Positions 12,675 through 48,368 of a stretch of DNA of 64,000 nt are shown piece by piece (within the stretch, counting starts at the first letter, position 1; each line of letters starts with the position of its first letter). The position numbers were made by a program, and so were the translations under genes. The notes beneath the pieces were generated by a model. It was not told the origin of the DNA. It ran no database searches and saw nothing but the letters and a program-made list of their open reading frames with translations. This DNA is from Eledone cirrhosa (lineage: Eukaryota): assembly GCA_964016885.1 (NCBI GenBank), contig OZ024754.1, positions 2,604,001 through 2,668,000 of the forward strand, read 5' to 3'.

Positions 12675-12872
12675 AAGAAAAAGTATGACCCCGACGGCAG
12701 AGCTCAAGCCGTTTCGACGGCTATTTCTTGTACGTATACTAAAGCATACGTCGAAACGGCGTGAGCTCTGCCGTCGGGGTCATACTTTTTCCTATTTCCC
12801 ACTCTACTACCCTAAGTATTGAGTACTCTGGTGCGTTATGGTCCATCTGGTTCTTTACCCCAATTCCTTTGT
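12675..12872 (+). mobile_element. Family A fold-back element (half-HHR)
   Basis: Inverted arms gaccccgacggcagagctcaagccgtttcgac / gtcgaaacggcgtgagctctgccgtcggggtc followed by the family A tail and (TA)n. Confidence 0.9.
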
Positions 12873-12898
12873 TATATATATATATACGTATGTATATA

Positions 12899-13030
12899 TA
12901 AATAATATAGAAATGGCTTCTACCTAAGTAAGGTACTCAATACATAGCAGAATATAAATATTTAATATAGAAATGGCTTCTATTTCATTCGGGAGAAATC
13001 ATCAGGAAAGCTTTCTAGATGATTTATCCC
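12899..13030 (-). mobile_element. Family B element, rearranged and partial
   Basis: aaggtactcaat...tttcattcgggagaaatcatcaggaaagctttc; CTGATGA...GAAA on the minus strand, stem III deleted. Confidence 0.75.
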
Positions 13031-13602
13031 AAAGTTAGCCCTGATCAAGCAAAGATAGGAGAGTAAAATAAAAAGTTCATAGTTTGACCAAGATACTCTC
13101 ATGGAATGACCAAACGAGGTTTATATTTGTGTAATATGTCGCGTAATGACATTGTAGACAAAGCTACACAATTATAAAGCAAACAACTAAAACACGCCGC
13201 CATACCTGGATGTTCTATATACACGTTCCACAATATATTTGTTCAGAATGCTTAAGTAAAAGATATAAAGAGAGAGAAAGATGTCTTCAATGATATATGT
13301 AAAGAACGCCACGTGTTCTGAGACTAAAGCTGTGAAACACTGTTTTATATCAACACTCGCGTGGTGTATTACAACAGCATTCATGTAGGGTAATAGCTAC
13401 ATCAACACTAATGTTATGTCTTAAACTAACAGCTATGGAATGTAGTATAAGCAGTAGACATGAAATGTACTATAGTAGTGTCGTAATATTTACTTTCGCT
13501 TATTATATCAATGAGCTAATGAGAATAAGTCTACATGTGGTTTGCTCGGACTACTAGATGTAATAGCTAAATCTCTCTCTCGATCGATCGATTTTTAGAT
13601 GG

Positions 13603-13800
13603 GTGTTTCTTGGGGCATTTCTACATTGGTTAGCCAATTTCCCTCCAGGGGTAGCACCCACGAACATGACACTCTGGTATCTTTGGTTGTGTTACCATGA
13701 AGTGGCTTTCCCTATCTTATGTTTAGTCCTAGCAAAGCTATTCCGTGATTTGCTCCTGTACAATGGGGAAATCCCTTTCATGTCCATTTGTATGAGGCAA
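13603..13800 (-). pseudogene. Penelope-like element ORF remnant (RT thumb to linker region)
   Basis: Single minus frame with one stop: GISPLYRSKSRNSFARTKHKIGKATSW*HNQRYQSVMFVGATPGGKLANQC, resembling the PLYR...W...Y.SV.FV.ATPG.EL block I recall from invertebrate PLE proteins. Not in the ORF track. Confidence 0.6.
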
Positions 13801-13964
13801 TCCCTACAAAAAGTAAGTTGTTCCCAACCTGACTACATTTAGAACAGGCTCTATTGATAACATGACCAATGTTGGTTTGTGGAGAGAGAAAACCAAGGGT
13901 AAATATAAGTGAATATTCTAATTTTCAACCATTTTTTAAGGCATTATCGGCATCTATGTAATGG

Positions 13965-14155
13965 TTTTTGATTTAGACACAAAGCCAACAAATCGACCCC
14001 AGGGCGTTACTGGTACTATATTTAATCGACCCCGTAAGGATGAAAAGTAACGTTAACCTCGGTGGGATTTGAAATCAGAACGTAAAGGGTCGTAACTATA
14101 TACCGCAATGCATGTTGTCCAGAGTTCTACTGATTACTGCAAATCTACCGCACTC
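13965..14155 (-). mobile_element. tRNA-derived SINE family 1, diverged copy
   Basis: ttactggtacta...atcgaccccgtaaggatgaaaag...ctcggtgggatttgaa core shared with the other copies. Confidence 0.8.
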
Positions 14156-14168
14156 GGCATATATATAA

Positions 14169-14523
14169 TTGTTTCCACTTTTGGCACAAGGCCAGCAATT
14201 ACCCAGTACATTACTGGTACTTTATTTTATCGACCCCGTAAGGATGAAAGGCAAAGTTAACCTCGGTGGGATTTGAACTCAAATAGTAATTGGACGTAAC
14301 TACGCTGGAAAGCATGGCGTCCGACCCTCTACCGATACTGCCAATCCACCGCCCTAGCATGGCGTCCGACCCTCTACCGATACTGCCAATCCACTGCCCT
14401 AGCATGGCGTCCGACCCTCTACCGATACTGCCAATCCACCGCCCTAGCATGGCGTCCGACCCTCTACCGATACTGCCAATCCACCGCCCTAGCATGGCGT
14501 CCGACCCTCTACCGATACTGCCA
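14169..14523 (-). mobile_element. SINE family 1 with tandemly amplified 5' head
   Basis: Core and B box (minus strand gagttcaaatccc); 45-bp head unit x4.7; 13-bp target-site duplication ggcatatatataa at 14156-14168 and 14524-14536. Confidence 0.9.
14311..14523. repeat. 45-bp tandem repeat, 4.7 copies
   Basis: agcatggcgtccgaccctctaccgatactgccaatccaccgccct starting at 14311, 14356, 14401, 14446 and 14491. Confidence 0.97.
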
Positions 14524-45161: not shown

Positions 45162-45428
45162 ATGTAGGAGGTGAGTTTTATTGTAGTACAATAAAGCAAT
45201 GCAGATATCGGATAAGAAGCACTCTACAGTTTGTAGGACTGGAGTATACATAATATATAAGATCAAATATGTTGATTTAAACTATCCACAAGTGTTTTTA
45301 ACCTTCATATCATGTCCTCATATTTTATCTGATGAAAACACAAATGTTATTGCATAATGATATTTGTTTTTGAAATGCGCATAATAAAATACATGGAACT
45401 CATTTAACCATCTTTTGATCTTATATAT
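45162..45428. mobile_element. Family E fold-back element
   Basis: Tail shared with 8881; atataagatcaaa (45254) versus tttgatcttatat (45414); HHR in the right arm. Confidence 0.75.
45321..45391 (+). ncRNA. Type I hammerhead ribozyme motif
   Basis: tattttat CTGATGA aaacacaaatgttatt...aatgatatttgttttt GAAA tgcgca TA ataaaata. Stem I is 8 bp; stem III is palindromic. Confidence 0.85.
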
Positions 45429-45764
45429 ATATATAAATATAAACCTGTGTTGTCACTCTACATATGTATTGAGTACTTCATTTGCTGTCGTTACCTCCGA
45501 CTCAATTGCTGTCTTCTACAAGACCTGTAACCTGGCATCAATTCCGATTCTATTTATACAGTCCCCAAACCTCTCAGATATGCACCCTAATGTTCCGATC
45601 ACCACTGGAATCACTAAAATCTCCTTCATCCCGTACAACTTCCATTTCAATCCCCTCTTTCAGTGGTTCCTACTTCATTATCATCATCACCACCACTACC
45701 ACCACCACTTCTCATTCTTGTTATGGTCTTTATCCTTCACTCTACTATTTTCTGTGATAAATCG

Positions 45765-45985
45765 GCAGTCGATCGACTTTCGTCATATCAGACCGAGGAA
45801 ACAATGTTTCCATTGGTCTTTCAAATTGGTATTACTTTTTATCGGCCACAAATCCTGGTAGAAGGGGCAACGTGAAATAAAGCGTCTTGCCCAAGGACAT
45901 AACGCATCGCCCAGTCCGGGAATTGAACTCACAACCTCACAATTGCAAATCCAATTCTCTAACCACTCAGCCATTCGCCTTCACT
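45765..45985 (-). mobile_element. tRNA-derived SINE family 2, near full length
   Basis: Minus strand A box tggctgagtgg, B box gagttcaattccc, body gtccttgggcaagacgctttatttcacgttgc. Confidence 0.85.
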
Positions 45986-46249
45986 AAATATATCGATAAT
46001 TTGGGCCTCTTTTTTATTCTCGTTCAAAACTAAAATCTCTGGCCTTCTTGCCCCAATCGTATTATCGAATTGAATGGTGGGATCCCACAAAAGCTTAAAT
46101 TCGTCATTCTCTATCACCCTTTCTTATCTCTGCTTACCCCATTTAGCTGCTCTGACAAACCCACATATCTCAGATATCATCTAATAGATATATCTTTGCA
46201 ATAGTATCCTGTTGTCTTTTCACCTCTCGCCATATTCAGACTATAGAAT

Positions 46250-46325
46250 AAAAGTTATATTACCAGTAATACACTGGGGTCGATTTAATGAAGTTTCCAA
46301 AATTGTTGGCCTTGTGCCTAAATGA
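46250..46325 (+). mobile_element. SINE family 1 3' fragment
   Basis: taccagtaatacactggggtcgat...ggccttgtgcctaaa. Confidence 0.7.
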
Positions 46326-47072
46326 GAAGCTACCAGCATAACTATTATCATCATCATCATCGTCACCATCTTCACCACATCATCACCACCACCACCACCA
46401 CCATCATCATTATCATCATCACCATCACCACTATCATTACCACCACTATCACCATCATCACCATTATCACTATCATCACCACCATCATCACCATCACCAC
46501 CATCATCACCACCACTACCACCACCACCACCACCATCCCCACTATCACCACCACTACAACCACCACCATCACCACCACCACCACCACCACCATCATCGTC
46601 ATCAACATCAACACTTCGTTAATCATCTGAACACTTCTTCACCAATTAATTGTTCACTGTCACTAGATTTACAATTAGAAATGTCTAATGTTTCTTCATT
46701 ATTCCATATGATACTTATATTATTTTATTTTTACTGATTAACTTATTGATTGATTTATTGATGAGCTGTAATTTTATTTTATTTATTTATATTTCTTTTT
46801 TATTTCTTTGTTGTTTTATTTTTGATTTTATTGGCTGAGATAATTTCAATTAAATTTTATTCAGCTGTAACAAGGTTTTATAAAATTGTTCATTTATTTT
46901 TTAAATTATTTATTCCTTCTTCTTTATTTTATTGTTACTAGCATCGTCATCATCATCATCATCATCATCATCGTACTCATCATCATCATCACCACCATCA
47001 TCATCATCATCATCAGCAGCATCATCATCACCACCATCATCATCATCATCATCATCATCATCATCATCATCA

Positions 47073-47852
47073 TTGTAATATTGTTGTAATATTGTTATAT
47101 TACTGATGTAATATTGTTGTATTGTTGTTGTAATATTGTTGTATTACTGATGTAATATTGTTGTATTACTGATGTAATATTGTTGTATTGCTGTTGTAAT
47201 ATTGTTGTATTACTGATGTAATATTGTTGTATTGCTGTTGTAATATTGTTGTATTGCTGTTGTAATATTGTTGTATTACTGATGTAATATTGTTGTATTA
47301 CTGTTGTAATATTGTTGTATTGCTGATGTAATATTGTTGTATTGCTGTTGTAATATTGTTGTATTGCTGTTGTAATATTGTTGTATTACTGATGTAATAT
47401 TGTTGTATTGCTGTTGTAATATTGTTGTATTACTGATGTAATATTGTTGTATTGCTGTTGTAATATTGTTGTATTGCTGTTGTAATATTGTTGTATTACT
47501 GATGTAATATTGTTGTATTACTGATGTAATATTGTTGTATTGCTGTTGTAATATTGTTGTATTGCTGTTGTAATATTGTTGTATTGCTGTTGTAATATTG
47601 TTGTATTGCTGTTGTAATATTGTTATATTGCTGTTGTAATATTGTTGTATTGCTGTTGTAATATTGTTGTATTGCTGTTGTAATATTGTTGTATTGCTGT
47701 TGTAATATTGTTGTATTACTGATGTAATATTGTTGTATTGCTGTTGTAATATTGTTGTATTGCTGTTGTAATATTGTTGTATTGCTGTTGTAATATTGTT
47801 GTATTGCTGTTGTAATATTGTTGTATTGCTGTTGTAATATTGTTGTATTGTT
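47073..47852. repeat. 22-bp minisatellite, about 35 copies, two main variants
   Basis: gtaatattgttgtattgctgtt and gtaatattgttgtattactgat alternate irregularly. Confidence 0.97.
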
Positions 47853-48305
47853 GTCACCTAATTTTATTTCAATTATTATGTAGCAATATCCTGAAGTATT
47901 TTCTTTTATTATTGTTTATTGTTGCTTCCTTTGTTGCTTTGGTTATTTTGTTGTATTTTTTCGGGGGGGGGGGGGGGGTTATTATAATTATTTTGCAATA
48001 GCTGGTTGAAATCTGTACTTTCGGTTTTGTAAGTTATGTCACCCTTCTTTCTCTATTGAAACACTCCACCCACGACCAGCCCTACCAACAACAGAAAACA
48101 CCCATCTTCATTCCCATCACCTCAGTTTCGCATATTTCATTTCCATGAATCATACATGTACTAATATTCTTTTTCTCTTTACCTCTCTACGTCTTCTCGC
48201 TTAAACTAACCAATTCTCAACGTCTTTTGCTCCACACACACACACACAGATACACACACACACACACACACACACACACACACACACACACACACATATA
48301 TATAT

Positions 48306-48368
48306 GTTCGGATCTAGCTGTCGAAACGGCCGCAGCTAGGACGTCGGGGTCCTGACTCTTTCCCATTA
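48306..48368 (+). mobile_element. Family A-related single arm
   Basis: gttcggatctagctgtcgaaacggcc...gtcggggtcctgactcttt matches the 36675 variant. Confidence 0.8.

Follow-up and report, generated by a model that had tools for sequence, protein, structure and literature searches.

The 64,000-nucleotide window analysed here (Eledone cirrhosa, contig OZ024754.1, positions 2,604,001 to 2,668,000) contains a family of short palindromes that are 5'-truncated ends of a Penelope-like element (PLE). The first-pass annotation reported nine copies. Inspection of the window sequence found the family at all nine positions, seven of which are full palindromes. The copy at 48306 is a lone arm with no inverted copy, and that at 44918 has a partial inverted arm (tail and a 14-nt piece), from which, as it now stands, its short arm could not have been copied. 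All nine are embedded in TA tracts. The consensus given in that annotation (the 3' strand of stem II, GAAA, a stem III with a palindromic loop and a GUC triplet) holds at every position, and no CTGANGA lies upstream of any copy in the window, as had been stated. Of a type I hammerhead ribozyme, the copies contain the 3' half and lack the catalytic core, so a complete hammerhead is impossible for them.

When numbered from the A of AGTCCAG (+1), the palindromes are lopsided. The 'short' arm ends in TTCC(TA)n at +58 and the 'long' arm in TTCGT(TA)n at +138; the long arm, the only one with a tail, extends about 80 nt beyond the short arm. Each of these ends, the putative RT starts, precedes a TAT that agrees with the (TA)n target, and the short one falls at the end of hammerhead stem I. 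The motif GTTCGGAT, described before as an asymmetric loop, is indeed common to the copies at 36675 and 48306 and marks an older subfamily, although it occupies +2 to +9 on the 3' side of stem II and is not in the loop. The surrounding genome (3.0 Gb) is rich in microsatellites, which swamped the output of a general repeat search. A 32-nt core sequence of the family has 45,383 exact matches genome-wide, against 0 for the reversed control.

Table 1. Copies of the palindrome family in the window (PLE assignment by comparison with the full-length parent; the sign after an arm is its orientation)
Feature	Coordinates	Strand
PLE stub: short arm (-), 20-nt centre insert, long arm (+) with tail	12675..12872	+
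PLE stub: long arm (-) to +1, short arm (+)	19531..19727	-
PLE stub: long arm (-), short arm (+), blunt centre	22401..22592	-
PLE stub of a different subfamily, in the same TA tract as 22401..22592: long arm (-), short arm (+)	22617..22806	-
PLE stub: short arm (-), 4-nt insert, long arm (+), tail cut at about +123	32290..32472	+
Older-subfamily stub: long arm (-) carrying a deletion and, on its outer side, a 13-bp fold-back; short arm (+)	36675..36803	-
PLE stub: short arm (-), long arm (+); centre type recurs at many loci	37150..37339	+
PLE stub: long arm (-) with only the +74..+138 tail and 14-nt piece, short arm (+) from +1	44918..45053	+
Older-subfamily single arm from +2, no inverted partner	48306..48366	+

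The full-length parent and its hammerhead

Three copies that were not selected for it (L061, L073 and L077) reach upstream through ACCCC-TTGAGAA-G and the long stem II, and carry a 3' untranslated region of about 1 kb and the coding end of a GIY-YIG protein. Genome-wide, 3,886 arms extend to the hammerhead core, and many of them form head-to-head pairs separated by 0.1-5 kb. At L128 the element is full length: an inverted truncated copy with tail is followed by a pseudo-long terminal repeat (pLTR), an open reading frame (ORF) for a protein of 719 aa with reverse transcriptase (RT) and GIY-YIG domains, and a second pLTR. The unit is 3,118 nt there and 3.1-3.5 kb in the family; partial tandems are present at L128 and L129.

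The single ORF of L128 has YRDD at 348 and YIG at 606 in the C-terminal GIY-YIG domain. Its other motifs are RWR in place of RWK, DKT, a CxCX5C linker, and CxxC and CxH in the endonuclease, with no GxKF/Y. Pfam and PDB searches with the ORF gave 0 matches; Atlas neighbours of the protein at 0.96-0.99 include GIY-YIG/RVT_1 clusters. The single RT/GIY-YIG ORF, pLTRs, partial tandems, inverted truncated copy and tail are together those of an endonuclease-bearing PLE. The protein motifs and the (TA)n targeting correspond to the marks by which section 11 of PMC8557442 defines the Hydra clade, and on these motifs and a comparison of RT blocks by eye the element is assigned to that clade. 'Neptune' was the first clade label and was replaced on the protein motifs; the Neptune linker CX2-5CxxC has no match in the L128 protein. 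Readings as a SINE or tRNA derivative, an HDV-like ribozyme or a type II hammerhead were abandoned on finding the parent. GIY-YIG coding fragments of other PLE families adjoin or join the palindrome family upstream at L035 and L036 and in the flank at L079.

The minimum free energy fold of the parent RNA is the three-way junction of a type I hammerhead, in which UUGAGAA and GAAA are unpaired, although its energy by itself is unremarkable (z-score -0.11). The core lies at -43 to -37 and the 54-nt stem II at -36 to +18; helix III, which is closed by a palindromic loop, forms 5-6 stable base pairs. When ten copies of old and young subfamilies were set into the named hammerhead structure, 90.3% of the cells were paired, and three stem II pairs were changed on both sides. 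A tally of 129 cores, which are not independent copies and were found with a pattern that required TGA, comprises 92 with U3-A8 (position 7 being free), 32 with C3 and A8, 5 others and no CTGANGA. On sequence, the parent hammerhead is judged complete and of the known U3-A8 (UUGANAA) type, as reported for PLE hammerheads (PMC4209133). The parent copy proposed by the first-pass annotation therefore exists, but not with a CUGANGA core. The check it suggested, a search for CTGANGA within 33 nt of GAAA, gave 64 matches; the 30 that were read are all centre inserts or flank, with no hammerhead among them.

RNAalifold, when given the same ten copies, preferred a different structure except for stem I, and the predicted ribozyme has a mismatch in the 32 of 129 cores with C3 opposite A8. 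In an Rfam scan, the 150 matches listed of 362 were driven by microsatellites and included no hammerhead. Among the first 100 of 319 junctions, about 30 fitted +42 by eye, 20 of them ambiguously, and ends at this predicted site are confounded by microhomology. The C3-A8 sublineage (L073, L102, L103, L125, L131 and L133) is widely spread; a matched 3-8 pair may therefore be dispensable for mobility.

Pairing and extent of the arms

Genome-wide, with patterns covering young subfamilies and short centres, 10,235 short palindromes were scored. Long arms are paired with short arms in 10,078 (98.5%), long with long in 80 and short with short in 77, where about 2,560 of each minor class would be expected if ends were drawn independently. 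A local sample of 65 gave 54 long+short, 4 partial-tail+short, 2 short+short and no long+long, with 5 unscored. At 65 nt upstream of +1 lies a (TA)n match of greater length; none of the 100 listed of 4,039 cases ends there, one being ambiguous. The short end is therefore not merely the first TA match. A short+short pair at L126 (G000:C1:80117000-80122800) has an inverted repeat that runs about 850 nt further into the flanking TA arrays.

The centres vary. There are 63 distinct centres among 85 pairs (10 of which came from loci picked as long+long or short+short), and microhomology, blunt joins and inserts all occur. Scoring of 69 long+short centres put the short arm ahead on the 5' side in 23 and the long arm in 25, and left 21 ambiguous. 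Among pairs of kilobase size, 10 of the 15 scored (18 fetched; L122, L126 and L127 omitted) have the short-ended arm as the longer one. In a second set it is the longer in 12 of the 21 scored by eye from 60 regions, the remainder being ambiguous or having no partner in range. The difference can be large, as at L133, where a short-ended arm of about 3 kb faces a long-ended arm of about 0.2 kb. The paired arms at L361, L365 and L370 have no common sequence, and the pairs at L167 and L261 join two subfamilies. In general the two arms belong to one subfamily (73 of 78 pairs, compared with 22 when the arms were shuffled), a result compatible with a single shared RNA, a single active source locus or self-priming.

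Upstream, most arms stop inside stem II. Of 174 anchored arms, 129 stop within a 12-nt zone around +1 and 13 pass -20; an end-anchored count found 6 arms passing -20 among 85 long ones and 6 among 80 short ones. Old and young subfamilies do not differ in where the zone lies. Among 25 'long+long' loci, six have an arm that starts at +1 to +10 and reads into the ORF leader, to about +183 to +357, and four of these then meet a new arm starting near +1. Some of the templates bounded near +1 are therefore from the 5' pLTR. Three-part inserts, consisting of an inverted long arm, a +1-to-leader piece and a further arm from +1, are found at L259, L395, L404 and L407 (G000, C1 and C2). They suggest a template jump into +180 to +360, the region where near-full-length copies stop. 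At L081, L088, L401 and other loci, long T runs stand directly before +1, possibly from stuttering of the RT or untemplated addition of A at the template end.

Origin of the palindromes

The explanation that we favour, and consider probable, is that the copies are truncated PLE ends placed head to head, each palindrome deriving from two separate RT events on the element RNA, one at either cut (TA)n end. The enzyme, likely as a dimer, would use the long site to start one cDNA and the short site to start its partner, with the match of TAT to the target aiding both starts. Both cDNAs would be extended to the RNA 5' end near the TTT-AGT junction, and their 3' ends united by end-joining repair. More tentatively, the RNA 5' end may be a transcription start inside the 5' hammerhead, in which case the template never contained the catalytic core, and the roughly 8% of arms that pass the stop zone may have been primed at the 3' pLTR.

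The first-pass annotation instead proposed that cDNA folded back on stem II and primed itself, with the palindrome centre as the natural stem II hairpin. More generally, a cDNA from the long site would fold back near its 3' end, copy itself to the short site and join the TA target, and later deletions at the centre would make the arms unequal. Such self-priming has been proposed for PLE palindromes (PMC3846280), accounts for the long+short rule, and predicts the subfamily match of the arms as well as one shared RNA does; both this match and the capacity of centre deletions to yield unequal arms count against two separate events. Fold-back does happen, as inverted copies of about 40-100 nt of flanking DNA adjoin the 5' junction at L043 and L053. 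However, since the tail is confined to the long arm, self-priming requires the short arm to be nested in the long one, whereas the short arm is the longer in about half of the scored pairs, by up to kilobases. Pairs with nothing in common or of mixed subfamilies, and the unused upstream (TA)n match, also speak against it. Either arm may hold sequence absent from its partner, which self-priming alone cannot give and which favours two cDNAs, each of them RNA-primed, that were united head to head. The true loop lies further upstream than had been supposed, and the fold-back product there is found only 6 times, against the 10,078 long+short palindromes. Self-priming is improbable as the origin of the palindromes.

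Under the two-primer origin, the stop zone is likely the putative 5' end of the RNA, and the simplest reading is that transcription starts inside stem II, with RT running off the template end from nearby start sites. A number of observations weigh against this. A start at +1 was seen in no full-length copy, and the 18 arms of more than 2 kb comprise 9 that end at +164 to +369 of the unit, 7 that end earlier and 2 that pass through a tandem. The stop is a zone and not a single base, although its position is blurred by the extension rule, which tolerated one mismatch. An extra G opposite the cap is not in excess (G 5, C 5 and A 3 among 66 single-arm loci, by eye, in a tally whose pattern could not match short ends, so that single short arms lie outside the count). 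It is possible, but rather doubtful, that under this same two-primer origin the zone instead marks an RT block or a processed RNA end, through structure, bound protein or trimming. In position the zone falls on the 3' strand of the apical helix of stem II, and the second zone of long cDNAs and the absent cap signal are in keeping with such a block. Against it, the same TT/TC-A-GT motif is found at the stop in subfamilies with different apical stem II sequences, a motif which we take to fit the initiator consensus. The Penelope element of D. virilis, moreover, is described as having an internal promoter (PMC2377424).

Spread of the palindrome as an intact unit, either as a DNA palindrome of the miniature inverted-repeat transposable element (MITE) kind or as a stand-alone retrozyme, is very improbable. 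Some centres do recur, and that of the copy at 37149 is found in 28 of the 30 top matches selected for it. The first-pass annotation had named uniform centres as the sign of such spread, and the many distinct centres counted above contradict this. The copies also form a size continuum up to the full PLE, include single arms and have unequal ends, rather than the uniform unit with equal terminal repeats of a MITE. Non-LTR retrozymes are tandem units, each with a complete hammerhead (10.64898/2026.07.22.740005); the present copies are dispersed, inverted and coreless.

It is conceivable, if on the unlikely side, that two-ended integration is obligate for PLEs. One complex would use each of the starts that bound the tail once, and over 90% of events would be strong-stop-like run-offs from an mRNA whose start lies within the 5' hammerhead. 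In that case the intact 3' hammerhead would act as a switch, its cleavage removing the downstream start sites and leaving only those that make stubs.

Relation to known elements

A close known counterpart, from the Hydra-clade PLEs, is Hydra-1_Obim (Craig et al. 2021, PMC8557442), which likewise has a C-terminal GIY-YIG domain, DKT, the CxCX5C linker, CxxC and CxH, (TA)n targets and a type I hammerhead, and whose RT blocks are alike by eye (supplementary files S1/S2). Its entry there (as Hydra-1_oBim) gives 2,507 bp, a CUGAAGA core, a 7-bp stem II and 'no pLTR', in contrast to the 3.1-3.5 kb unit, pLTRs, U3-A8 core and 54-nt stem II found here. By these features and the comparison by eye, the palindrome family is taken to be different and new, although it may already be catalogued.

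An inverted 5'-truncated copy and a one-sided tail are the published layout of PLEs (PMC8557442, Fig. 2; PMC3846280), which likewise has the inverted copy head to head, the tail at one end only and partial tandems, as at L128 and L129 here. The tail of the present family is about 80 nt rather than 30-40, and most insertions hold only the pLTR end, unlike that layout. Long+short pairing is almost general here, where the corresponding passages of these two papers have 'optional' or 'often only at one end'. The origin of the tandem and inverted ends and of the tail is named as open in PMC8557442, and PMC3846280 leaves self-priming and its alternatives undecided.

The Poseidon element of Anolis, PAc, cuts and extends both strands in vitro, and two internal RT starts bound its tail (Frangieh et al. 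2024, PMC11167929), in support of the two-start origin favoured here. Hammerhead cleavage is reported there to be dispensable for insertion in vitro. The starts of PAc lie at RNA without target homology, in contrast to the two TAT-preceding starts found here. The Cercyon PLEs of Schistosoma (Cervera and De la Pena 2014, PMC4209133) likewise show U3-A8 covariation, and truncated PLEs there give hammerheads in pairs, one on either strand; compared with theirs, the hammerhead here has a very long stem II and a stable helix III with a palindromic loop.

The element itself is ordinary transposon debris and no new ribozyme class, and its architecture is already published; what is added is the counted long+short rule and the fixed stop zone. 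Neither was found in the literature searched, subscription journals and Repbase/Dfam lying outside the search. With its ten thousand natural insertions, a young ORF that is still open and start sites defined at two positions, the family is a direct test set for how PLE ends are formed.

The window also holds another PLE-like family (2627-2840, 12892-13033, 19740-19932 and 55191-55418), in which the CTGATGA hammerhead is intact and the head-to-head long+short layout in (TA)n is the same. The motif GTATTGAGTAC is common to this family and the tail of the palindrome family, and may be a binding or start signal of the protein.

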